Shown in pieces: positions 1-12,079 of a DNA stretch of 64,000 nucleotides (its first letter is position 1; each line of letters opens with the position of its first letter). The DNA is from Candidatus Omnitrophota bacterium (GTDB taxonomy: Bacteria > Omnitrophota > Gorgyraeia > Gygaellales > Profunditerraquicolaceae), in assembly GCA_041650835.1 (NCBI GenBank), contig JBAZKL010000002.1:14477-78476 (forward strand), read 5' to 3'. A model generated the notes under the pieces. The model worked only from the letters and a program-made list of their open reading frames with translations. It ran no database searches and was not told the DNA's origin. Both the position numbers and the translations under genes were made by a program.

Positions 1-41
1 ATAAGGCGATACCATTATATGAAACATTTATTTCGGAGTCA

Positions 42-1979
42 TTGTTTGATGATGTGTTGCGGGATTATTTAATTTGTCTCTACAAATCAAAAGAGCACAG
101 AAGCAAGAACCTCGAGAAATGTCTAACTATTTGCCAAAATCTTAGGAAATTAGGAAAATTTGTTCCTTTTACGTTCGAGTTGGAAGCGGCCATTTATGAG
201 GAAATGGATCGACTAGATGAAGCCATGTCTTTATACCTCGAACTGTCGAAGCGTGAGCCAAAGAATATTCGTCATAAACTAAATTATGCCAAAGTTATGA
301 TTGATATAGGAAGGGAAAAGGACGCGGGAATAAGACTGCTATATGAGGTTAAGGATGAGGTTGAAGACAAGGATTCCTTCCTTATTTTGGCGAGAGCATT
401 CTTAAAGATTCAAAACCATGACGAATCCATAAAGCAATTATTTAAAGCGTTGGAAATCGATTTCAATAATCCGGAGATCCAGCTGTTTTATATTTACACG
501 TTTACGAGCCGAAAAGATAAAAAGAGCGAAATGCTAGATTCCGAAACTGTGCGTGAAGATTTCTTTGTGAAGATTAAAAAGAATGGACACGATCAAGAAT
601 ACTTAGTTACTGCGAATCCTAAATCGTCGATTGCCAAATTCGAGTTATATAAGGAATCCGGTTTGGGTAAGGCACTTTACGGGAAAAGGGTTGCGGAAGA
701 AATAATAGTTAAAAATGAATACAGTGCAGATGATGTTATCAAAATAGTTGAGATTAAAAGTAAATACGTGAAGGCCTTCCAGAATATTTTAGATAATTTT
801 AATATTTCTTTTCCGGACAATAAGGCAATTTGGAAAGTTGAAGCGAGTCCGGAAAGGCTGAAAGATATGCTGAACAAATCGTCGGATAGATCAACCAAGA
901 TAATGGAGATGTATTTATCAAAGAATATTACTATCGGGGCGCTTTCTGCTTTTTCTGGAAGAAGTCTATTCGTTTGTTGGGGCGCGCTTATTGGACAGGG
1001 GTCTAAATTGTACTGTGCTACTGGCAGTGCTGTGGAGCAAAGAAAAGAACAGGAGATTATTCTTAATTCAAACAGGGTTATTATCGAGCCGATCGCTTTA
1101 TTTACTCTTGGTTTTTTAAATTTAGTGGATTTGCCATCAAAGATATTTTCGGAGGTCTATGTTCTTAAGGCTACCTTGGATGAGCTAGATATGGAAATCG
1201 TAGAGTTAAGCAAAAGCGAAGATGCGGGACTTACAACGCTTTTTTCTAAAGAAGGCAAAGCATTTCGACAAGAGATCTCTGCTGAAAATATTAAGATGAA
1301 AATAGATTTTCTTAAAAAGATGCGAGATTCGCAAGGGTTGATAACAACGGGATTAGAACACCCACTGGATGATAGTTTTAATGGCAAAGAAAAGATACTA
1401 GGTTTGCCATATATATATTCGATTCAAGCTTGTGTTGAAAAGCAAGCGCCGCTGTTTTGTGACGATGTTTTTTTTAGAGAATTAATTCGCAATGAGCATA
1501 AGATAGATTCTTTCGGTGTTCAAAATTTTCTTGTAGTTGCTCTTCAAAAGGGAATCATAGCCGAAAACGATTATTGCGATAAGATATTAGAATTAATAAA
1601 GATTGGATACTTCTATCTTTCTGTATCCGCAAAAATGCTTTTTTATTATGCGGAGAAAGACAGTTTTCAAATACAGCCGGGAAATGCGTTTGACATAGCC
1701 ACCGCAATTCTTGATTCAAGAGAAACATCTATTGAATCGCTGCTTGCAGTATTAACAGATTTTATGAAGCTAATGCTTATTGAATCCCTGCCCGATGAAA
1801 TCAAAGATAAATATTTACATTTAATCATAAGTCTTTTAGCAAAACGCGGATCGCCCCATAAAATGATTAAGATTTTCAGTCAAGTTCTCGCTAAGAAGCT
1901 TGGGTTAGCTGAGCATCTTATGGTACAGGTTAATAAGAAAATAGATCAGTGGATTAAAATTAATTACCCAATCGTGTGA
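42..1979 (+). CDS. Hypothetical TPR-like protein, AT-rich; possibly 5'-truncated by the window edge
   Basis: 645-aa ORF called from a TTG. The reading frame stays open upstream to position 1, so the true start may lie outside the window. Codon usage is strongly A/T-biased compared with every downstream gene. The N-terminus has TPR-like helical repeats. I recognise no catalytic motif with confidence. Confidence 0.6.
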   Translation: MFDDVLRDYLICLYKSKEHRSKNLEKCLTICQNLRKLGKFVPFTFELEAAIYEEMDRLDEAMSLYLELSKREPKNIRHKLNYAKVMIDIGREKDAGIRLLYEVKDEVEDKDSFLILARAFLKIQNHDESIKQLFKALEIDFNNPEIQLFYIYTFTSRKDKKSEMLDSETVREDFFVKIKKNGHDQEYLVTANPKSSIAKFELYKESGLGKALYGKRVAEEIIVKNEYSADDVIKIVEIKSKYVKAFQNILDNFNISFPDNKAIWKVEASPERLKDMLNKSSDRSTKIMEMYLSKNITIGALSAFSGRSLFVCWGALIGQGSKLYCATGSAVEQRKEQEIILNSNRVIIEPIALFTLGFLNLVDLPSKIFSEVYVLKATLDELDMEIVELSKSEDAGLTTLFSKEGKAFRQEISAENIKMKIDFLKKMRDSQGLITTGLEHPLDDSFNGKEKILGLPYIYSIQACVEKQAPLFCDDVFFRELIRNEHKIDSFGVQNFLVVALQKGIIAENDYCDKILELIKIGYFYLSVSAKMLFYYAEKDSFQIQPGNAFDIATAILDSRETSIESLLAVLTDFMKLMLIESLPDEIKDKYLHLIISLLAKRGSPHKMIKIFSQVLAKKLGLAEHLMVQVNKKIDQWIKINYPIV

Positions 1980-2201
1980 AAATAAATGCGAGAATAGTTT
2001 TCCGATATCAACCGCGCGGCGGTGATTGTGAATATTAGCAAGGCATTCGTTGATTGGCAGTAAATCTTTCAAAACCCCTGCATAAGCATCCCCCGAATTA
2101 TTACCAATTTGCGGTAACGACCCCATTGTCAAAATAATCCGTTGTTGTAAGATCAAGACAGACTCGCGGGACAGCTGATCACTGTTGCCGTTTTGCAGAA
2201 A

Positions 2202-2242
2202 GCCATTTCCAGTCGACTGGCCGGAGATGGCTTTTTCTTTTT
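2202..2242 (+). terminator. Rho-independent terminator
   Basis: GCCATTTCC...GGAGATGGC 9-bp stem with one T-G wobble. It encloses the perfect 12-nt palindrome CCAGTCGACTGG and is followed by TTTTTCTTTTT. Confidence 0.6.
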
Positions 2243-2244
2243 AG

Positions 2245-2650
2245 GGTTCGACACTTTGAAAAATATTGCGTGTTCATAGATGAGGGGGACATTTGAGCGA
2301 AAAAATCTGTATATACGCAGTAGGGTGCAACACTTTGGCAAAAAAGGGCGTATATACGCGGTAGGGGGTGTTACACTTTTCGATTTTTTGCGTGTTCATA
2401 GGTGAGGGGTGCGAAACTTTGAGCCTAAAAACGCAATAACTACTCTGAGGGGCAAAAAAGTTCCGACACTTTTCGGAAAAATCCGGAATATACGCTTAGG
2501 GAGTGAAACTGGTGAAGAAAGTGAAAATATTTCCGGCAGGTTTACCAAAAACATCGTATGTAGCTAGTAGAGGGGCTTGTGAAGTGAAAATAAATAAAAT
2601 ATTTCCGTCAGTTTTCCAGTTCTTTGCGTATGTAGCTAGTAGGAGGCAGT
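2245..2650. repeat. Iteron-like direct-repeat array (putative replication origin or regulatory region)
   Basis: Three families of direct repeats. (a) TTGCGTGTTCATAGRTGAGGGG at about 2266 and 2388. (b) ATATACGC-N-TAGGGRGTG at about 2310, 2352 and 2487, each followed by ACACTTT(T/G)-N-AAAAA; the ACACTTT motif occurs 4 times. (c) A ~50-bp unit ATATTTCCGnCAGnTTTnCCA...GTATGTAGCTAGTAGnAGG, present twice at about 2528 and 2601. Confidence 0.7.
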
Positions 2651-2656
2651 GAAACT

Positions 2657-2887
2657 ATGAAAGACAAGTGCTTTGAAGCGGGAAATCTCTATCTGGCTAC
2701 GTATTTGCTCTCTTGCGGGTTTGCTATGAGGGGCATTGAGGGATCGGGACGGCTCAAGAGGATCCTGTTTGACGACATCCCGGCCGTTCATAAGGCATGC
2801 GAAGAGTTTTTCGCCGATTCGGAGGCACGCAAGCTGTTTGACTGTTACCGGAGGGTTAAGGATTATTTATTTCAAAATGGAGTTTAA
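2657..2887 (+). CDS. Small hypothetical protein, translationally coupled to the primase
   Basis: 76-aa ORF with an AGGAGG Shine-Dalgarno 8 nt upstream. Its TAA stop lies 2 nt before the primase ATG. The overlapping ORF 2736..2954 is out of frame and rejected. Confidence 0.55.
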   Translation: MKDKCFEAGNLYLATYLLSCGFAMRGIEGSGRLKRILFDDIPAVHKACEEFFADSEARKLFDCYRRVKDYLFQNGV

Positions 2888-2889
2888 AA

Positions 2890-5256
2890 ATGGAAGACGA
2901 GAGAAGAAAAGAGAAGAGAAAAATGGAAGAGATCATACCGCAGGAATTGCTTAAGCTACCGAGCTGGGTTGGGTATCAGCTCAGGCGTAACAAAGGCCGC
3001 ATTGATAAAGTTCCCATGAACGTCCTGACCGGACGTCCTGCCAAAAGTAACGATCCCAGCACATGGACAGATTTCGAGACTGCAGTTGATTTGGTGAGCC
3101 AGCGCGGATATGCGGGTGTTGGTTTTATGTTTAGTCCGCCTTATGTGGGCGTGGATATAGACCATTGCGTCAAAGACGGAGCTATCGCGCCGTATGCGGT
3201 GGAAATCTTAAAGGCGCTCAATTCATATTCGGAATATTCGCCCAGCGGCACCGGCATTCATATTCTTTGTAAAGGCGAGATCGCCCGGGCATGCAAGATT
3301 TCAAAGATCGGGCTTGAGATTTATACCAAGGGCAGATTTTTTACCGTTACCGGCAATCGCCTTGAAAATTATCCGGCTGATCTTAACGAGTGCACTGATG
3401 CGCTAACCGCCATATTCAGCCGGGTTGTAGATAAAAGGCCCGCGGACGACATTTTTGCTTTAATCTCTAAAAGTAAAGACGCGGAGAGGTTTCAGCGGCT
3501 CTATTCCGGCCAGTGGCAAAACGATTATCCATCTCAGAGCGAAGCGGATTTGGCGTTAGGCAACAAGCTGGCCTTTTGGACTGGTAAAGACGCCGGGCGT
3601 ATGGATTCGCTTTTTCGCCAGTCCGGACTCATGCGGCCCAAGTGGGATGAGAAACATTTTGGTGACGGCCGGACCTATGGCCAATCGGTCATTGAAAAGG
3701 CAATCAGCGGGTGTAGTGAGGTTTATGGAGGAAACGGGGCTTCGGGGCCGGTTGCTAAGGCTAAGCTCACGCAGGGCGAGATCATTACCCGCGATTGCGA
3801 GGAGAGCATTAAGGACTTCTTTCGCGATCAGCATGGCAATGCTTTTGTGGTGCTTCCGGTGGAAAGCCATTTTGAGGTATGCCCGACAACGGGCGTGCGC
3901 TTTAGGAATTGGAAGGCGACTCGATTCCGTGATCGCTTTGGCGTACCGCCTAAGATTGAGGCACTTAATCAGGCACGGATTCAGGTTGAGGCGCGCTGTG
4001 GAAGTTCCCGGCAGGTTGAGCTCTTTAATCGAGTAGGCTGGCATAACGGGAAAGTTTATTACGACCTGACAACGCCGGACTATCGAGGTGTAGTTATCGA
4101 TGAAACCGGCTGGGACGTTGTGCCGTTGCCGCCGATATTCAGGCGTTATCAGCATCAAGCCGAGCAGGTGATTCCGGTTAAGGGCGGCGACCCTAAGGCG
4201 ATATTACGTTTCTGCAATGTTAATCCGGACGATCATTGTCTTTTCATGGTCGCCATCGCATCATTCTTCATTCCCAATATTCCGCATGTCATTTTAAGTC
4301 AGACCGGCGAGCAGGGCTCCGGTAAATCGAATAATTCCCGCAAGATTAAAGGCTTGGGCGATCCGTCCAAGGTCATGCTGATCTCAACTCCCAAAGAATT
4401 GGAGCAGGCGCAGATGACCGCGGAGAAGCACTGGATCAGCACCTTCGATAATATCTCCAAAATTTACGAGTGGTTTAGCGATTTCCTCTGCCGAGGCGTT
4501 ACCGGCGAAGGCGACATGAAACGCAGTCTTTATACCAATGACGACGAGTTCATTCGTTCATACAAACGGTGCTTTGTATTGAATGGTATTGGCACGTCTT
4601 TGTGGCGGGCGGATTTGCTCGACCGGGCCATTATCTTTGATATTCCGGTTTTAAAGAGGAGCCGAGCAGAAAAAACTATGGAAGACGAATGGCAACGGGA
4701 GCTTCCCGGGATTCTGGGTGGATTCTTTACTGCCATTTCAAAAGCAATGAATACTTTCTCGCAAGTTACCGGACATGAAAAGTTTCGCATGTCTGATTTT
4801 GCTCAATGGGGAGGCGCGCTGGCGGGGGCATTGGGTTATTCGCAGGATGAGTTTTTCAAAAAGTATCAGGAGTCAGTGGATCGTAAATGGCAGGACACCG
4901 CGGATGACAGCTCGTTTGCCAAGAGACTGATCGAACTCATGGATAAGCACGCAGGCTATTGGGAAGGCTCGGCCGCGGAGCTTTTGCACGAGGTAACCCA
5001 CGATGACGACGATGAGAAAGGCATGCCCAAGACCGCCAAGTGGCTTTCAACAGAGCTACTGCGTATTGCGCCGGTCATGCGTAATGTCGGAGTGGATATC
5101 GTAAAGAAAGACAAGCGCGAGCCAGGTACCGGCCGCAGGCTTTTTGTTCTTAGGCGAACCGAGTCAAAGTCGTGTGAGTACGGGTGTGAGGAAGGTGTGA
5201 GCAGAGGCGTGCTTTGTGAGGATCGTGCGGAGGTGGACAGTGACCGGCCGTTCTAA
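2890..5256 (+). CDS. Primase-polymerase (AEP prim-pol) / SF3 helicase fusion replication protein
   Basis: The N-terminus carries prim-pol motifs: VGVDIDH (hhDhD) and SPSGTGIHILCKG (SxSGxGxH). The middle region carries a Walker A motif, GEQGSGKS, typical of D5/P4-type helicases. The last ~30 codons are encoded by GTGTGAGG heptamer repeats. An alternative start at M12 (position 2923) is possible. Confidence 0.85.
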   Translation: MEDERRKEKRKMEEIIPQELLKLPSWVGYQLRRNKGRIDKVPMNVLTGRPAKSNDPSTWTDFETAVDLVSQRGYAGVGFMFSPPYVGVDIDHCVKDGAIAPYAVEILKALNSYSEYSPSGTGIHILCKGEIARACKISKIGLEIYTKGRFFTVTGNRLENYPADLNECTDALTAIFSRVVDKRPADDIFALISKSKDAERFQRLYSGQWQNDYPSQSEADLALGNKLAFWTGKDAGRMDSLFRQSGLMRPKWDEKHFGDGRTYGQSVIEKAISGCSEVYGGNGASGPVAKAKLTQGEIITRDCEESIKDFFRDQHGNAFVVLPVESHFEVCPTTGVRFRNWKATRFRDRFGVPPKIEALNQARIQVEARCGSSRQVELFNRVGWHNGKVYYDLTTPDYRGVVIDETGWDVVPLPPIFRRYQHQAEQVIPVKGGDPKAILRFCNVNPDDHCLFMVAIASFFIPNIPHVILSQTGEQGSGKSNNSRKIKGLGDPSKVMLISTPKELEQAQMTAEKHWISTFDNISKIYEWFSDFLCRGVTGEGDMKRSLYTNDDEFIRSYKRCFVLNGIGTSLWRADLLDRAIIFDIPVLKRSRAEKTMEDEWQRELPGILGGFFTAISKAMNTFSQVTGHEKFRMSDFAQWGGALAGALGYSQDEFFKKYQESVDRKWQDTADDSSFAKRLIELMDKHAGYWEGSAAELLHEVTHDDDDEKGMPKTAKWLSTELLRIAPVMRNVGVDIVKKDKREPGTGRRLFVLRRTESKSCEYGCEEGVSRGVLCEDRAEVDSDRPF

Positions 5257-5470
5257 ATGTGTGAGTTTGCTCACGTGTGCTCACGCTTGCTCACAGGCGT
5301 GCTCACAAGGTCAAGGCTACAGCCATCAAGGGGTTATGTATTGTTGTGAGGTTTGTGAGGCTAAATTCCTTCTCTTTTTAGAAATCAATAAATATATAGG
5401 AAGAGGCGTATACATCGCCTATGGATGGGCAGGTGTGAGGATAGCGATTTTAGCCTCACATTGCTCACAC
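5165..5470. repeat. Dense cluster of GTGAG(G/C) / (G)CTCAC heptamers (putative second iteron set or origin)
   Basis: At least 12 copies of GTGTGAGG, TGCTCAC or CCTCACA in both orientations within ~300 bp. One stretch has four tandem TGCTCAC copies at about 5267-5310. The cluster spans the primase stop codon. ORF 5216..5536 from the track is most likely an artefact of this repeat. Confidence 0.7.
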
Positions 5471-5663
5471 ATATGCTTACGGGTCCTTCGGAGGGGGTGT
5501 GGGCCGCGGGTCGGGCGAGGCGAAGTCTGTGAGTGATGTCGGATTTTCAAAATGTCGTGTCGTGGTCGTATGGGCGTATTTCGGGGTGTCCGGTTGACAA
5601 GGGATAAAAAAGGCGTTTTCCGTCGTGAAACCGGCTTAAATTTGGCTCAAAATCGCCTCAAAA

Positions 5664-5714
5664 GCGATGTCCTAAAATACGACAAAACCGGACATTTGCG
5701 ATGTCCGAATGTCC
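5664..5714. promoter_or_regulatory. Operator-like repeats: GCGATGTCC x2 including the palindrome GGACAT-N5-ATGTCC
   Basis: GCGATGTCC occurs at 5664-5672 and 5697-5705. GGACATTTGCGATGTCC (5690-5706) is an inverted repeat, and a third ATGTCC follows at 5709-5714. The site lies just upstream of the small ORF and the HTH gene. Confidence 0.4.
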
Positions 5715-5731
5715 TACTGTAGAAGAGAATT

Positions 5732-5929
5732 ATGATCAGGGAAGCGAGCACAATTAATGTGAAGGCGGTAACGCCGCGAGGCTGGGACGCTTTAGAGATA
5801 AAGCTAAAAGGAAGGGGTCTGTCCAGCGTGGAAATTCAAGAAGCTCGTAAATCATTCTTTGAGGGGATTGAGACATTATCAAAGATGTTTTTGGCAATGT
5901 ATTCGGCAGAGAAGAAACCGCTTGTATAA
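5732..5929 (+). CDS. Small hypothetical protein
   Basis: 65-aa ORF between the repeat region and the HTH gene. It has only a weak RBS and no recognisable motif. Confidence 0.3.
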   Translation: MIREASTINVKAVTPRGWDALEIKLKGRGLSSVEIQEARKSFFEGIETLSKMFLAMYSAEKKPLV

Positions 5930-5962
5930 GGTTGTATATTACGGTATACTGGGCACCATTAG

Positions 5963-6154
5963 ATGAGGGTGTCAAATATGAAAACATACTCCATGACAGA
6001 GACGGCAAAATTACTGGGCGTGCACCGGCAGACCATGATCAATTGGATCCGCAGGGGATGGGTTAAGCCCAAGCGTGATTATAAGGATTGGCCGGTGTTT
6101 ACGGACGAGTGTATCGCCAAGATTAAGGCATGGCGAGAGACGTTAAAAGGATAA
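5963..6154 (+). CDS. Excisionase-family / AlpA-like helix-turn-helix DNA-binding protein
   Basis: 63-aa protein containing TETAKLLGVHRQTMINWIRRGWV, the classic excisionase-family HTH signature. It sits immediately upstream of the recombinase; its stop is 1 nt before the recombinase ATG. Confidence 0.7.
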   Translation: MRVSNMKTYSMTETAKLLGVHRQTMINWIRRGWVKPKRDYKDWPVFTDECIAKIKAWRETLKG

Positions 6155-6155
6155 G

Positions 6156-7835
6156 ATGAGAGTAGCGTTATATACAAGGGTAAGTACAGAAGATCAGGCG
6201 CGCGAAGGTTTTTCGCTGGAGGTGCAGAGGACATATCTTTTGCAATACGCGAAAAATTTCGGCTGGGATGTTTTTTGCAGTATGTCGGGCCGGGATATTT
6301 ATATGGATGATGGTTATTCCGGCGGCAATATGGACAGACCGGCGTTGCAGAGACTTTTGTTTGACGCGCGCAATAAGCAGTTTGATCTGATCATGGTGTA
6401 TAAGCAAGATCGCCTAAGCCGTCGGCTTAAGGACCTGTTAGGACTACTTGAGGAGATTGATTCGCTGGGCATCGGGTACAAATCAGCGACCGAGCCATTC
6501 GATACCACGTCCAGCGCCGGGAAGATGGCGATTCAGATGTTAGGCAGTTGCGCGGAGTTTGAACGCAATCGCTTAGTCGAGAGGGTATTCCCGGGCATGG
6601 TGGTTGGTGTTAAAAGAGGTCACTGGCAGGGAGCGCGCTACGCGCCGTATGGTTACCGTTACAATAAAGAAGTCAAGAAACTCGAAGTCCATCCGGAAGA
6701 GGCAAAGATCGTTAAAGAGATTTACGCGATGTACATAAGCGGCACGAGCACTTCGCGGATCGCAGGACATTATTACAATCTTGGGATCCCTTCAAGACAA
6801 GGCGGACGATTTTATAATAAATTCATTTCCAATATTCTGCAGAGCAAGGTCTATTTAGGGATGCTGGTGTGGAATAGACGTCGCTATAACACAAAAGAAA
6901 AGACAAAGAACGGCGAAGGCAAAGGTTACAAGTATGTGAATAATGATCCGTCCAAGATTATTGAAGTACCGAATACTCACGAGCCGATAATTACGCAAAG
7001 AGATTTTGATGAGGCCAGAACGCTTCTCAAACGTAACCGCACCAATGGTGTGGTTAGATTCAGGAATAATGTTTATCAGCTTTCCGGTATTCTGAAATGC
7101 AATGAGTGCGGAGGCAATTACCGCGGAATCACCGCGACAGTTAATCATCGCACCAAAATGCGGCGGCCATGGTATCGTTGTTCTTCCAAAGGCATACCTC
7201 ATATTAAGTGTAGCAATAAATCTGTTACGGCTGACGCGATCAATAAGCAGGTTTGGGATATTGTAGAAGTCATCCGTCAGAATCTTCATGTGCTTGAGGA
7301 ACTGGGTGACATGATCAAACTTAACGCATCCGAGCCGGAGCAGTTGTATGTCGAGCAATTAGAGGATAAGGACGCGCTTCTTAAGAAGAATATCGAGAAG
7401 CAAAAGGGGATCTACGAGTTGTTTTCAGAGGATAAAATTAATCTCGCGCTCTATAAGGATAGGGCCGAGCTTTTGAGTAATGAGGAGAAAAAACTAAAGC
7501 AGGATATCAAGGCGATTCAGCTTAAGATTCTGGATAAGCGTAATTCCGTTAACCTTGTAAAGGCGACGCAGGATTTCCTTTTGAGGTTACGGAGCACGCC
7601 GGATGACCGCCAGTTGGATTATCTGGTCAAAACCTTTATGCGGATCATCTTTAAATCGATCCACATCCAGAATCAGGAGATCGTGAAGTTCGATCTAAAC
7701 GAGCCTTGGAAGACTTGCTATGAAGAGGGGATGAAATGGTTGAAAACGAGCGAAAAGACGACAATACAGGCGATTCCGGAGGCAAAAGCCCGAAGAAGTT
7801 ACGTGTGCTTTTGCGCACCTTCGGATGTCAAATGA
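6156..7835 (+). CDS. Large serine recombinase (integrase)
   Basis: N-terminal resolvase catalytic motif RVALYTRVSTEDQ. It also has a recombinase domain and a zinc ribbon (CNECGGNYRG...WYRCSS), followed by a long coiled-coil C-terminus. Total length is 559 aa. Confidence 0.85.
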   Translation: MRVALYTRVSTEDQAREGFSLEVQRTYLLQYAKNFGWDVFCSMSGRDIYMDDGYSGGNMDRPALQRLLFDARNKQFDLIMVYKQDRLSRRLKDLLGLLEEIDSLGIGYKSATEPFDTTSSAGKMAIQMLGSCAEFERNRLVERVFPGMVVGVKRGHWQGARYAPYGYRYNKEVKKLEVHPEEAKIVKEIYAMYISGTSTSRIAGHYYNLGIPSRQGGRFYNKFISNILQSKVYLGMLVWNRRRYNTKEKTKNGEGKGYKYVNNDPSKIIEVPNTHEPIITQRDFDEARTLLKRNRTNGVVRFRNNVYQLSGILKCNECGGNYRGITATVNHRTKMRRPWYRCSSKGIPHIKCSNKSVTADAINKQVWDIVEVIRQNLHVLEELGDMIKLNASEPEQLYVEQLEDKDALLKKNIEKQKGIYELFSEDKINLALYKDRAELLSNEEKKLKQDIKAIQLKILDKRNSVNLVKATQDFLLRLRSTPDDRQLDYLVKTFMRIIFKSIHIQNQEIVKFDLNEPWKTCYEEGMKWLKTSEKTTIQAIPEAKARRSYVCFCAPSDVK

Positions 7836-8983
7836 ACGTGCGGGATTCGGAGGTGATCTGCGGACTTTTAAAGAATGCCGGTTTCCAGATCGTCCAGGAA
7901 GAAGATGAAGCAGATGTAGTTATCTTTAATACCTGTTCTGTCCGTCAGCATGCCGAAGATAAGGTTTGGAGCGAAATAGGAAGAATAGCTAAATCGAGAA
8001 AAAAAGATTGCTTCGGCGCAAAAAACGCGCCTCGCAATGACACTCGTTGCGGTTATCCGATTATTGGATTGGTTGGATGCATGGCGCAGAATTATAAAGA
8101 AGCAGCCTTTGACCGCTCTGAATACCTCAATTTTGTCGTGGGGCCGTCAGATATAGATAAGATTCCCGGAATTGTTGCTAAAGTCGCCAGTCGCCAGCCG
8201 TCTGTCACCAGTTCAAATTTATTTGAAACGAAAATCTGGGAGACAGATGGAACTATCAGGCCGGAAGATGTATATCATAGCGGTTTTTATGAAGAAAAAG
8301 ACCACGCCTTTGTCGTTATATCCGAAGGCTGTTCCAATTATTGTTCTTATTGCGTGGTCCCTTTTGTGCGGGGAGAAATACACCATCGTCCGCATAAAGA
8401 GATCATGAATGAAATAAAACAGGCCCTCGATAGGGGGATCAGCCGTATTACGCTCCTGGGGCAGAATGTGAATGCGTATGGATATGAAGATGTTAGTTTC
8501 GTTAAGCTTGTTGAGTTCGTTAATGCCGTGAAAGGATTAAAAGAGTTCAGTTTTATTACGTCGCACCCGAAGGATACTTCGCTTGAGTTATTCAAAGCGA
8601 TGGCTGACCTGGAAAAACTGAAAAAATACCTGCATTTGCCTGTTCAGGCCGGCTCAGACAGGATCCTGAAATTAATGAATCGCGGGTATACTCAGAAATT
8701 TTATCTGGACTTGGCGGATAATTATCGTAGAATTGTAAAGGGTGGCGTATTGACATCTGATATCATTGTCGGCTTCCCTACGGAAACCCGGGAAGAGTTC
8801 CAGGATACCTATGACCTGGTTAAACGCGTAGAATTTAACGCGGCTTATATTTTTAAGTATTCTCCCCGTCCGCATACGCATGCGCAGCACCTGGTTGATG
8901 ATGTCGATAAACAGGAAAAGGCGCGCCGGCATAAGCTGGTTTTAGAGCTGCAGAAGGCGATCTCTAAGAAGGTCAAAAAGTAA
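7736..8983 (+). CDS. miaB: tRNA-i6A37 methylthiotransferase MiaB
   Basis: N-terminal KKLRVLLRTFGCQMN motif, comparable to E. coli KKLHIKTWGCQMN. Radical-SAM motif CSNYCSYC and a TRAM C-terminus are present. The first 100 nt overlap the recombinase 3' end in another frame, so the start codon is uncertain (ATG 7736 or GTG 7805). Confidence 0.85.
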   Translation: MVENERKDDNTGDSGGKSPKKLRVLLRTFGCQMNVRDSEVICGLLKNAGFQIVQEEDEADVVIFNTCSVRQHAEDKVWSEIGRIAKSRKKDCFGAKNAPRNDTRCGYPIIGLVGCMAQNYKEAAFDRSEYLNFVVGPSDIDKIPGIVAKVASRQPSVTSSNLFETKIWETDGTIRPEDVYHSGFYEEKDHAFVVISEGCSNYCSYCVVPFVRGEIHHRPHKEIMNEIKQALDRGISRITLLGQNVNAYGYEDVSFVKLVEFVNAVKGLKEFSFITSHPKDTSLELFKAMADLEKLKKYLHLPVQAGSDRILKLMNRGYTQKFYLDLADNYRRIVKGGVLTSDIIVGFPTETREEFQDTYDLVKRVEFNAAYIFKYSPRPHTHAQHLVDDVDKQEKARRHKLVLELQKAISKKVKK

Positions 8984-10819: not shown

Positions 10820-12079
10820 ATGGAAAAAGTATTGCTGGTGACCATAAAGTTGAAATCGGATAGAAGCAATTGGGGCGTTGACGATATTATCGAGGAAATG
10901 GAAGAGTTGACCTTGACCTGCGGCGCTGAAATAATCGATAATGTGACCGCGGTCATTGAAAAGCCGACGCCTAATCTTTTTGTCGGCAAGGGTAAGACGG
11001 ATGAAATTGCCATGCTTTGCGCTGAATTAGGGATAGACACCGTGGTTTTCAGCTGCGACCTCTCGGGAACGCAGCAGCGTAACCTGGAAGAGGTGCTGGG
11101 CAGGAAAACAATCGACCGCACGCAGCTGATCCTGCATATATTTGCCAAGCACGCGCACAGCCCTGAAGGGAAGATGCAGGTCGAGCTGGCTCAACTGCAG
11201 TATATGCTTCCCCGGCTCATCGGTAAAGGCATTATCCTTTCCCGTATGGGCGGCGGTATCGGCACAAGCGGGCCCGGCGAACAGAAGCTTGAGGTCGACC
11301 GCAGGCGTATCAGGAAGAAGATCGATAAACTCAAGAATGATTTGAGCGGCTTTTCTCAGCACCGCCAGACGATCAGAAAAAAAAGAAAAGATAATGCTGT
11401 CCCGACAATCGCGCTGGTCGGATACACCAACGCCGGGAAATCCACGCTTTTAAACGCGCTGACCGGCGCGAGCCAGGTTGTCGCCAACAGCTTGTTCACG
11501 ACCCTGGATACATTGTCGAAAAAACTGGTTTTGCCCAATGGCGAGCAGGTTATTCTTTCCGATACGGTCGGATTCCTGCAGCATCTGCCGCATCATCTTA
11601 TTGAAGCTTTTAAGGCAACGCTTGAAGAAGTTGTCGACGCCGACCTGTTGATCCATGTTCTGGATGTAAGCCATCCGCGCGTTTATGAACACCATGAGTC
11701 CGTGGTCGAAGTTTTAAAGGAGTTGAAAGCCGATAGCAGGCCACTGATAACCGCTTTAAATAAAATTGACCTGCTTGACGATAAGGCGTGGCTGGAAAAA
11801 CTCAAAAATGATTTTGTTAACGCGATCGCGATATCCGCGACTTCCAAGGCAAACTTTGAGCTTTTATTCCTTGAGATCGAGAAGAATTTTGCTTCCAAGA
11901 TGGTTTGTGCCGATTTAAAGATCCCGAATAGCAGGATGGACCTGGTCAATCTTTTTTATAAGGAAGCGCGAGTTGAAAAGATCAAATATTCAGCTGATTC
12001 TATTTTGGTATCGTTAACAATATCAAAGATCCTTTATCATAAACTGCTTCAAGATAATGATGTTACGTTAATCAGTTAG
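10820..12079 (+). CDS. hflX: GTPase HflX
   Basis: HflX N-domain plus G-domain motifs LVGYTNAGKSTLLNALTG and DTVGF. Confidence 0.85.
   Translation: MEKVLLVTIKLKSDRSNWGVDDIIEEMEELTLTCGAEIIDNVTAVIEKPTPNLFVGKGKTDEIAMLCAELGIDTVVFSCDLSGTQQRNLEEVLGRKTIDRTQLILHIFAKHAHSPEGKMQVELAQLQYMLPRLIGKGIILSRMGGGIGTSGPGEQKLEVDRRRIRKKIDKLKNDLSGFSQHRQTIRKKRKDNAVPTIALVGYTNAGKSTLLNALTGASQVVANSLFTTLDTLSKKLVLPNGEQVILSDTVGFLQHLPHHLIEAFKATLEEVVDADLLIHVLDVSHPRVYEHHESVVEVLKELKADSRPLITALNKIDLLDDKAWLEKLKNDFVNAIAISATSKANFELLFLEIEKNFASKMVCADLKIPNSRMDLVNLFYKEARVEKIKYSADSILVSLTISKILYHKLLQDNDVTLIS

Follow-up and report, generated by a model that had tools for sequence, protein, structure and literature searches.

Islands and prophages with dusA-specific integrases insert in the 5′ end of dusA and replace it with sequence of their own (Farrugia et al. 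2015, PMC4482086). We examined a related arrangement in a 64,000-nt stretch of DNA from a Candidatus Omnitrophota bacterium (contig JBAZKL010000002.1; the whole stretch is called the window below), in which a large serine recombinase gene runs into the start of a gene for a MiaB-like methylthiotransferase. The dusA-specific integrase family is the closest functional analogue of this locus, as in both cases the 5′ end of a tRNA-modification gene is hit; the dusA islands carry restriction–modification (R-M) and other accessory genes as cargo (PMC4482086), and the present element probably does so as well. The dusA integrases differ in being tyrosine recombinases of Proteobacteria whose genes do not overlap the rebuilt open reading frame (ORF) of the target, whereas the target here is a methylthiotransferase of the MiaB/RimO family in Omnitrophota. 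The locus is a serine-integrase element that rebuilds the start of a MiaB-family gene from its own integrase ORF; the principle of gene repair is itself known, and this variant of it is uncommon. In full, our reading is that an integrative element, with a replication module, a helix-turn-helix (HTH) protein, a serine recombinase and probably defence cargo, recombined into the first codons of miaB, and we give it a probability of roughly 85%.

Attachment sites inside phage and integrase genes have precedents. The ORF of Mx8 IntP spans attP, and integration alters the C-terminus of the protein (Tojo et al. 1996, as cited in PMC4383910), while the "suicidal" integrases of the SSV type have attP inside the integrase ORF and are split by integration (PMC7253208). 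Both resemble the present case in that attP lies in the integrase ORF and the product is changed by integration, but both are tyrosine recombinases targeting tRNA genes; here, the enzyme is a large serine recombinase that gives up no more than a disordered tail, and the DNA concerned also encodes the new N-terminus of the target. In mycobacteriophage BPs and its relatives, attP lies in the repressor gene and immunity depends on integration (PMC4557955, PMC3694055). This too is a case of attP in a phage gene and of a C-terminally altered protein after integration, although it is the repressor rather than the integrase that is affected, and integration relies on a tyrosine recombinase. By analogy with BPs, the tail swap described below might conceivably have a regulatory role. 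Among large serine recombinases, CcrAB and CcrC of SCCmec insert at the 3′ end of rlmH (orfX), which SCC preserves, and A118, SPbeta and skin disrupt their targets. Phage A118 inserts in comK (PMC3556126). All four share with the element studied here a large serine recombinase of the same domain architecture, site-specific insertion in a housekeeping gene, and adjacent accessory cargo. We know of no element of these types that supplies a start codon and leader from within its recombinase ORF. A literature search, with incomplete coverage that offers no proof of absence, returned no paper linking Omnitrophota with serine recombinases and no description of a serine integrase ORF crossing attP.

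The recombinase gene occupies 6156–7835 on the + strand (559 aa; Pfam, PHROG integrase phrog_95), and the miaB-like gene 7736–8983 on the same strand (415 aa; ORF list, Pfam). An earlier note on this DNA had reported that the 3′ end of the former overlaps the 5′ end of the latter, and the two ORFs bear this out. The dual-coding overlap (7736–7835, + strand) is exactly 100 nt long, is read in two different frames, and encodes recombinase residues 527–559 together with MiaB residues 1–33. The earlier note had the conserved FGCQMN motif beginning after the overlap; its codons (7820–7837) instead take up the final 16 nt of the overlap, and they include the recombinase stop, TGA at 7833–7835, which is built from the miaB codons CAA-ATG-AAC (Q-M-N). 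The recombinase-frame stop is the same TGA in all 75 related junctions fetched, and the junction is identical in a second, independent ENA assembly of the window's genome (L009); the overlap is genuine and not a one-off accident of ORF calling. One might still suspect a chimera, assembled from a mobile-element contig and a miaB contig, since metagenome assemblies often break near the junction and the ENA version of the window's genome has a break of its own within the element, at 6007–6147. Such an artefact would have to arise identically in both assemblies (window and L009) and again at the 75 loci, from many studies, that have the same architecture, some on contigs of several hundred kb, and we consider it extremely improbable.

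The deposited annotation avoids the overlap by starting miaB at ATG 7832 (P0001, 383 aa), which cuts away the first conserved Cys of FGCQMN. Several MiaB homologues are likewise annotated from MNVRDSE..., and starts at positions of this type look like a systematic error caused by overlap avoidance.

Comparison with related loci places the end of the element within the overlap. Element sequence runs to 7827 (…CACCTTCGGATG), and the first host-derived base is 7828. The DNA of L010 is 95% identical to window positions 4908–7827 and diverges exactly after CACCTTCGGATG; beyond that point it reads ACGAATGGGTGCAG…, adds 44 codons to the recombinase (P0121, 601 aa), and then has a terminator hairpin. 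L102 (P0130) has the same left arm, followed by ACGATTGGTTGTGC…, 23 further recombinase codons, and then cargo genes. After GGATG, both continue with ACGA(A/T)TGG…, which is dyad-symmetric to the P arm (GCACC-TTCG-GATGA-CGAA-TGGGTGC), and dyad symmetry is expected of a serine integrase attP. The P arm itself, GTTAC-N17-TTCGG-ATG (7798–7827, + strand), is identical in these two attP forms. Their divergence at 7828 places the crossover in TTCGGATG (7820–7827, + strand) or at its right-hand end; an alignment of attB, attP, attL and attR forms across relatives narrows it to this stretch and not to a single dinucleotide.

On the other side of the junction, the host part of miaB (7828–8983, + strand, from the B′ arm onward) matches the unoccupied miaB of L106. 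This is the closest element-free relative fetched (MiaB 75% identical, N-terminus MNSKVYLRT), and it aligns with the window only rightwards from the junction. L005, the contig of the MiaB homologue P0008, was assembled from the sample that also yielded the independent version of the window's genome. Its element end has 3 mismatches in ~270 nt and is near-perfect up to …TTCGGATGTCA, while identity to the window falls to ~70% after 7830 and the fused MiaB is 67% identical. Where the recombinases are 99% identical, the bases at 7828 and 7831 still differ from host to host, which supports host DNA from 7828 onward. Two more distant family members, L061 and L068, are complete canonical insertions that keep the displaced native miaB start: in L061, the native start MKNKEVTNKKVFLRTFG is cut by a junction-made TGA and joined to a P′ arm that lies 11.3 kb upstream of attR, and in L068 the native MKVLLKTFG* is fused to a P′ arm 10.35 kb upstream. 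From these alignments, we assign 7798–7835 to attR of an integrative element. The earlier note had proposed both that the element integrated into, or just upstream of, the miaB start and that the att core lies inside the overlap; the attP forms, L106 and L005 agree with integration in the 5′ coding region, and the second proposal can be sharpened to TTCGGATG at 7820–7827. Three other contigs with leader-bearing MiaB genes break 0–27 nt upstream of the leader ATG, as expected where a repeated or variable element adjoins. Together, the comparisons demonstrate the chimeric structure, the position of the junction, movement between hosts and paralogues, and attP, attB, attL and attR forms in relatives.

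The new start of miaB consists of a Shine–Dalgarno (SD) sequence, GAGGGG at 7725–7730, a 5-nt spacer, and ATG 7736 (7725–7738, + strand; sequence and related loci). SD and ATG are embedded in the recombinase codons Y-E-E-G-M-K-W, the SD within the conserved C-Y-E-E-G, and related loci have this motif ahead of the extension too. A 28-codon N-terminal extension of low complexity follows, MVENERKDDNTGDSGGKSPKKLRVLLRT (7736–7819, + strand; protein and DNA alignment). Most of the Omnitrophota proteins among 120 MiaB homologues have 7–15 residues ahead of FGCQMN, as against 28 here, a count that replaces the 16 given earlier. The leader is 100% identical in P0008 even though the MiaB cores are only 65% identical, and related leaders occur in several other distant homologues, whereas the nearest core relatives (P0002–P0005, 73–81%) have unrelated N-termini and no leader. 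The end of the leader, KKLRVLLRTFG, mimics the native first β-strand and keeps the first cluster-binding Cys in frame. Judged by sequence comparison, SD, ATG and the 28-residue leader were supplied by the element, which thus carries a replacement for the displaced target end. This extends the earlier proposal that the element may give miaB its start codon; the leader is shared with P0008 and with the attP forms.

The leader could instead be native to this MiaB lineage, with the element inserted upstream of ATG 7736, and related leaders without a recombinase do occur (L002–L004, L006). This is very unlikely. The attP forms L010 and L102 hold the whole leader-coding sequence as far as GGATG and diverge only at 7828, the leader is invariant where the core has drifted to 65% identity, and L006 keeps a fragment of the recombinase tail upstream of its leader.

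The body of the MiaB-like protein is intact. Pfam finds UPF0004 (PF00919, residues 23–136) and Radical_SAM (PF04055, 193–362) in the 415-aa ORF, and the translation retains the Cys motifs FGC, NTC, GC(M) and CSNYCSYC. The protein scores 370 bits against the MiaB/RimO family model TIGR00089 (cut-off 251) and 347.6 bits against the MiaB equivalog TIGR01574 (model positions 3–374 of 437), just under the cut-off of 355.3, because it lacks the TRAM domain; the ORF stops 15 nt before the next gene. Essentially all Omnitrophota homologues (P0001–P0120) are also without a C-terminal TRAM domain, with only PF00919 and PF04055 listed. Downstream, synteny is kept, with a SPOR/TPR gene followed by miaA and hflX. 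The miaA neighbourhood favours a MiaB role, and we term the gene MiaB-like.

If the insertion had inactivated miaB, the upstream ATG would be fortuitous, and the gene would be a pseudogene or would yield a truncated protein from ATG 7832, where the public annotation P0001 does start. A consensus scan of 7400–7736 for σ70-like promoters gave no promoter, its hits being no more frequent than in shuffled sequence, so that the scan is uninformative. Inactivation nevertheless seems improbable to us. In 65 of 75 junctions, the leader frame is open and offers an ATG; 56 of these also have an SD-like motif, and the others have GTG-type candidates. In every case, the P arm puts …(R/K)T-F/Y-G-C back in frame, and the body is full length with all its Cys motifs. 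A start at 7832 would remove the first conserved Cys of UPF0004, a residue of established importance in methylthiotransferases. The chimeric MiaB is presumably active.

The recombinase has the catalytic and C-terminal domains of a large serine recombinase and not the chemistry of a tyrosine recombinase. Pfam resolves the 559-aa ORF into Resolvase (PF00239, E = 5e-33, residues 3–157), Recombinase (PF07508, 180–294) and Zn_ribbon_recom (PF13408, 309–368). In an alignment of 37 family sequences, Y6, R8, V9, S10, T11 and Q14 are invariant, with Ser10 in the YTRVS motif, as are the zinc-ribbon residues Cys315, Cys318, Cys342 and Cys352. The best NCBIfam matches are CcrB, CcrC and XisF, all far under their family cut-offs; with 194.6 bits for CcrB and 147 bits for CcrC, against 900 for each, the protein falls outside both equivalogs. 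An AlphaFold2 model has long helices at 395–424 and 430–478 and then a β-hairpin at 499–514, which would be compatible with the long coiled coil that serine integrases have inserted in the zinc-ribbon domain. In this model, made with the family alignment as input, the last folded elements are at ~499–536, and the predicted local distance difference test score is below 50 for 534–559. The overprinted stretch is thus predicted to be a disordered tail, which would allow two reading frames and a binding site to share the same DNA.

The attP forms encode recombinases of 580–601 aa, as opposed to 559 aa in the integrated state, with divergence at codon 558. The integrated protein consists of residues 1–557 of its own and then V-K-stop from the host (7828–7835), so that two host-encoded residues stand in for the natural tail of 23–44 residues found in close relatives. 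A small palindromic insertion (GGATTCCCGC…GCGGGAATGAC; …MDxRFRG(N/D)D…) recurs in the region of the disordered tail and miaB leader, in L006 (7560–7650) and in the recombinases P0128, P0139–P0141, P0146, P0147, P0150 and P0154. Its repeated landing there indicates that the stretch is little constrained.

The same junction is found across the family. A scan of species-representative genomes gave 520 loci with relatives, of which the best 80, almost all from Omnitrophota, were examined. The fetched loci contain 75 junctions of type T(T/A)YGGNTGYCARATGAA, every one with the recombinase stop in Q-M-N TGA; the ORF in the recombinase frame is longer than 400 codons in 68. The methylthiotransferase has an in-frame upstream ATG in 65 junctions, with an SD-like motif in 56 of those, and a GTG-type start candidate where the ATG is absent. 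Nearly all of 120 recombinase homologues, with identities between 99% and 43%, have the C-terminus …PS(D/A)(V/A)(K/R), encoded by target DNA in the +1 frame; roughly one in eight is longer-tailed and represents the attP form.

Targets and recombinases have not diverged together. Recombinases that are 99% identical are fused to methylthiotransferase cores only 54% (L012) and 41% (L022) identical to that of the window, and over 65 adjacent pairs the identities of recombinase and target are uncorrelated (Spearman −0.09, p = 0.49). The element must therefore move among hosts and among methylthiotransferase paralogues, with targets of both NVRDSE and NEYDSEL type. A few loci have a leader and no recombinase. 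In L002–L004, a homologous 25-residue leader sits directly downstream of an unrelated radical SAM gene, and in L006, which has AbiEi/AbiEii genes upstream, ~35 nt of the recombinase tail (…WKMCYEEG…) remain along with the palindromic insertion. From their sequences, we read these as probable relics of old insertions, in which the element was lost and the leader had to stay. The earlier note had named relatives that lack the element and yet carry the same extension and upstream sequence as the finding that would speak against insertion. The extension does occur without a recombinase in L002–L004 and L006; the sequence further upstream differs, and the nearest MiaBs are leaderless.

These relic leaders, together with the lack of an attL in the window or in close relatives and the very common recombinase–miaB arrangement in Omnitrophota, would also suit a domesticated, immobile recombinase whose overlap with miaB is old and vertically inherited, for instance for translational coupling. 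Under that explanation, one would not expect near-identical recombinases at targets of 41–54% identity with uncorrelated divergences, attP forms with the same P arm, a majority of leaderless MiaB homologues in Omnitrophota, or the canonical attL/attR pairs of L061 and L068. We judge it unlikely.

Insertion of a mobile element is thus the reading we prefer, and its proposed mechanism is as follows. The attP lies inside the 3′ end of the element's own recombinase gene, where the P arm …GTTACGTGTGCTTTTGCGCACCTTCGGATG would serve at once as a recombinase half-site, as the last residues of the recombinase beyond its folded domains and, in the other frame, as the SD, ATG and leader of miaB. Strand exchange within TTCGGATG would rebuild miaB from the element's leader and the host's body, replacing the native N-terminus. 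In the same event, the recombinase would lose its natural C-terminal tail and terminator and end on two host-encoded residues and Q-M-N TGA. As the terminator moves to the attL side, transcripts of the HTH–recombinase operon should read into miaB, which would then be transcribed from element promoters, and the tail swap may have a regulatory effect.

Several observations weigh against this reading. No attL or displaced native miaB 5′ end was found for the window's element or for ~25 close relatives, over 7–12.7 kb left of the backbone, so that the size of the element and any excision at present can only be surmised. The consensus scan detected no promoter-like site upstream of ATG 7736, and a promoter for miaB within the element is at most surmised. 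In place of ATG 7736, GTG 7804 or TTG 7810 could be the translation start. The homologous leaders without a recombinase in L002–L004 and L006 could mean that the leader is ancestral in some lineages. The attP-form contig L103 leads into housekeeping-looking genes, which means that attP forms are not necessarily free circles, and no circular contigs were found.

A more speculative extension, which we hold only tentatively, is that the arrangement works as a built-in switch set by the integration state and as a host-addiction device. In its free form, the element would make a recombinase with the natural tail and use its own terminator; once integrated, it would make a tail-less isoform, with transcripts running into miaB. 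Addiction would follow if miaB expression is tied to element promoters, with excision or loss of the element penalised once the displaced native 5′ end has decayed. A further variant of the switch may exist in a subfamily with perfect inverted copies of 156–208 nt, in which a recombinase segment could flip between two alternative 3′ ends.

This distant subfamily (recombinase ~42% identical) has the last 156–208 nt of the recombinase ORF, up to …TTCGGNTG, repeated in inverted orientation 2–8.6 kb upstream. The copies are 94–100% identical, and the outer end is fused to a conserved P′-type arm that encodes an alternative recombinase tail. The arrangement, which could constitute an invertible recombinase segment, occurs in L065, L072, L076, L077, L078, L080, L081, L083 (copies at 6761–6936 and 11479–11654), L084, L086 and L091; in L077, the P′ arms of the two ends differ. 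In L087, one and the same arm is joined to each of two divergent miaB-like genes.

Taken together, the recombinase–miaB loci define a large family of serine integrases, not described before, in the uncultivated phylum Omnitrophota. The family has a single natural target that is very well conserved, namely the start of MiaB/RimO genes where TFGCQMN is encoded. One 30-bp stretch would combine a binding half-site, the C-terminus of the recombinase, and the translation start and first β-strand of the target, a compact natural case of overprinting driven by site-specific recombination. The arrangement accounts for annotation pipelines that mis-start miaB genes and for assemblies that break there. 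It also marks miaB as a probable hotspot for defence-gene cargo and provides attP/attB pairs ready for testing new integrases.

The left side of the element is less simply delimited. Its conserved backbone starts sharply at 2094 (2094–2243, + strand, CGAATTATTACCAAT…GTAACGACC); the same boundary adjoins unrelated flanks in L012, L036, L024 and 10 metagenome contigs. At these boundaries, accessory genes on the + strand (restriction–modification, helicases and others) stop 15–45 nt away, and in the window a terminator scan finds a terminator-like hairpin at 2219–2241, after the boundary. The earlier note had expected attL at 1980–2250, and no miaB 5′ motif or P′ arm is present there. The window and L011, which extends 7 kb further left, were searched with exact and degenerate motifs for the miaB 5′ end and for P′ arms like those of L010, L102, L061 and L068, and neither occurs; a displaced native fragment of the kind that marks attL in L061 and L068 is thus lacking for the window's element over this range. 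The boundary at 2094 is not attL and is that between backbone and cargo. Its CCGAATTATTACC…GTAACGACC mirrors GTTAC-N17-TTCGG of the P arm, but the two adjoining bases never match attR, the flanks are the ends of unrelated cargo, and true P′ arms read ACGA(A/T)TGG….

Other explanations of the left flank were considered and rejected. MAFFT and BLASTP gave no support for an inverted, decayed copy of miaB. Tandem accretion of older elements was dismissed on finding no recombinase remnants in left flanks and no repeated sites between cargo genes, and an integron-like cassette array was not supported either.

In the attP form L102, cargo lies directly downstream of attP and the backbone upstream, from which the integrated order is attL–cargo–backbone–recombinase–attR. 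This order makes the R-M genes and the gene for a 951-aa PIN-TPR-GreABC protein probable cargo, the element longer than 14.9 kb, and attL a site beyond the sequence reached. The 3′ part of the PIN-TPR-GreABC gene fills the window's left end (1–2093, gene 42–1979, + strand; Pfam, L011 gene map), and we take the upstream defence genes as probably belonging to the element. Window positions 1–2057 are shared with L032 at 86% identity, as against ~71% in the miaB region, which fits the cargo reading. This defence-type island left of the backbone (42–1979, and L011 1–9090) encodes a type I R-M HsdS, an HsdR with an S24 peptidase domain, and a trypsin-like protease in addition to the PIN-TPR-GreABC protein; its GC content is ~36%, compared with 45–50% nearby.

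The first ~72 nt of the backbone (2094–2165, GAATTATTACC…GTAACGACC…GTAAGAT) are single-copy in the window and occur in 2–3 tandem copies in some relatives (L024 4845–4990, L032 5934–6080, L093, L101). Next comes a non-coding region, 2244–2640, with sets of 31–44-nt direct repeats (families D1, D2 and D6) that contain GTATATACGC and GCGTGTTCATAG. The repeats precede the genes for DUF5659 and the primase and resemble iterons or operator arrays. The DUF5659 gene (2657–2887, + strand; Pfam) belongs to the backbone, with the same gene order in L102, and is followed by a gene for a primase-polymerase/helicase-type replication protein of 788 aa (2890–5256, + strand; NrS-1 polymerase HBD) that matches PHROG DNA primase phrog_1829 with E = 2e-86. 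Between this gene and an ORF at 5732–5929 lies a 24-nt inverted repeat (5345–5469, 83% complementary, 77 nt between the arms) in a non-coding or weakly coding stretch; its sole Rfam match is a chance-level miRNA, and Rfam gave nothing credible over 1900–8100.

Directly upstream of the recombinase, a small MerR/excisionase-like HTH protein of 63 aa is encoded (5963–6154, + strand; Pfam HTH_17/MerR_1). It matches the TIGR01764 excisionase domain weakly, as well as PHROG excisionase families, and is a candidate directionality factor or regulator. The break in the ENA assembly falls in this gene, where L009 and L011 overlap by 141 nt, an indication that the ENA sample contains several variants of the element side by side.

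Beyond these close relatives, attP-type sites turn up in other settings. In the complete genome of the cultivated Ca. Velamenicoccus archaeovorus LiM (L057, 10001–11701), a 43%-identical, long-tailed homologue (…PSVGRCLPYRHSMADLAEALIGAD) does not adjoin a miaB-like gene, and the locus resembles an intact attP-type site of chromosomal location. L103–L105 (P0136, 80% identical) have an attP-type junction, TTCGGATG-CCAGATGGTTGCG, and the 10 kb past it encode Fur, FeMo-cofactor-binding proteins, MinD-like Fe-S ATPases, thioredoxin and DnaJ; this is either a very large element or plasmid, or an attP in a chromosome. Scans of viral contigs for the left-end motif and attP gave no match. L067 and L069 had been considered as one bin with both junction states, and this was rejected, as they are different elements, 83% identical. 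Lastly, L010 (2920–3530), L085 (5557–6390) and L059 (3046–3101) agree closely in the P′ arm and in the ~600 nt that follow it, where a gene for a small membrane protein lies, while their recombinases are only ~43% identical to one another, which indicates module exchange between elements.

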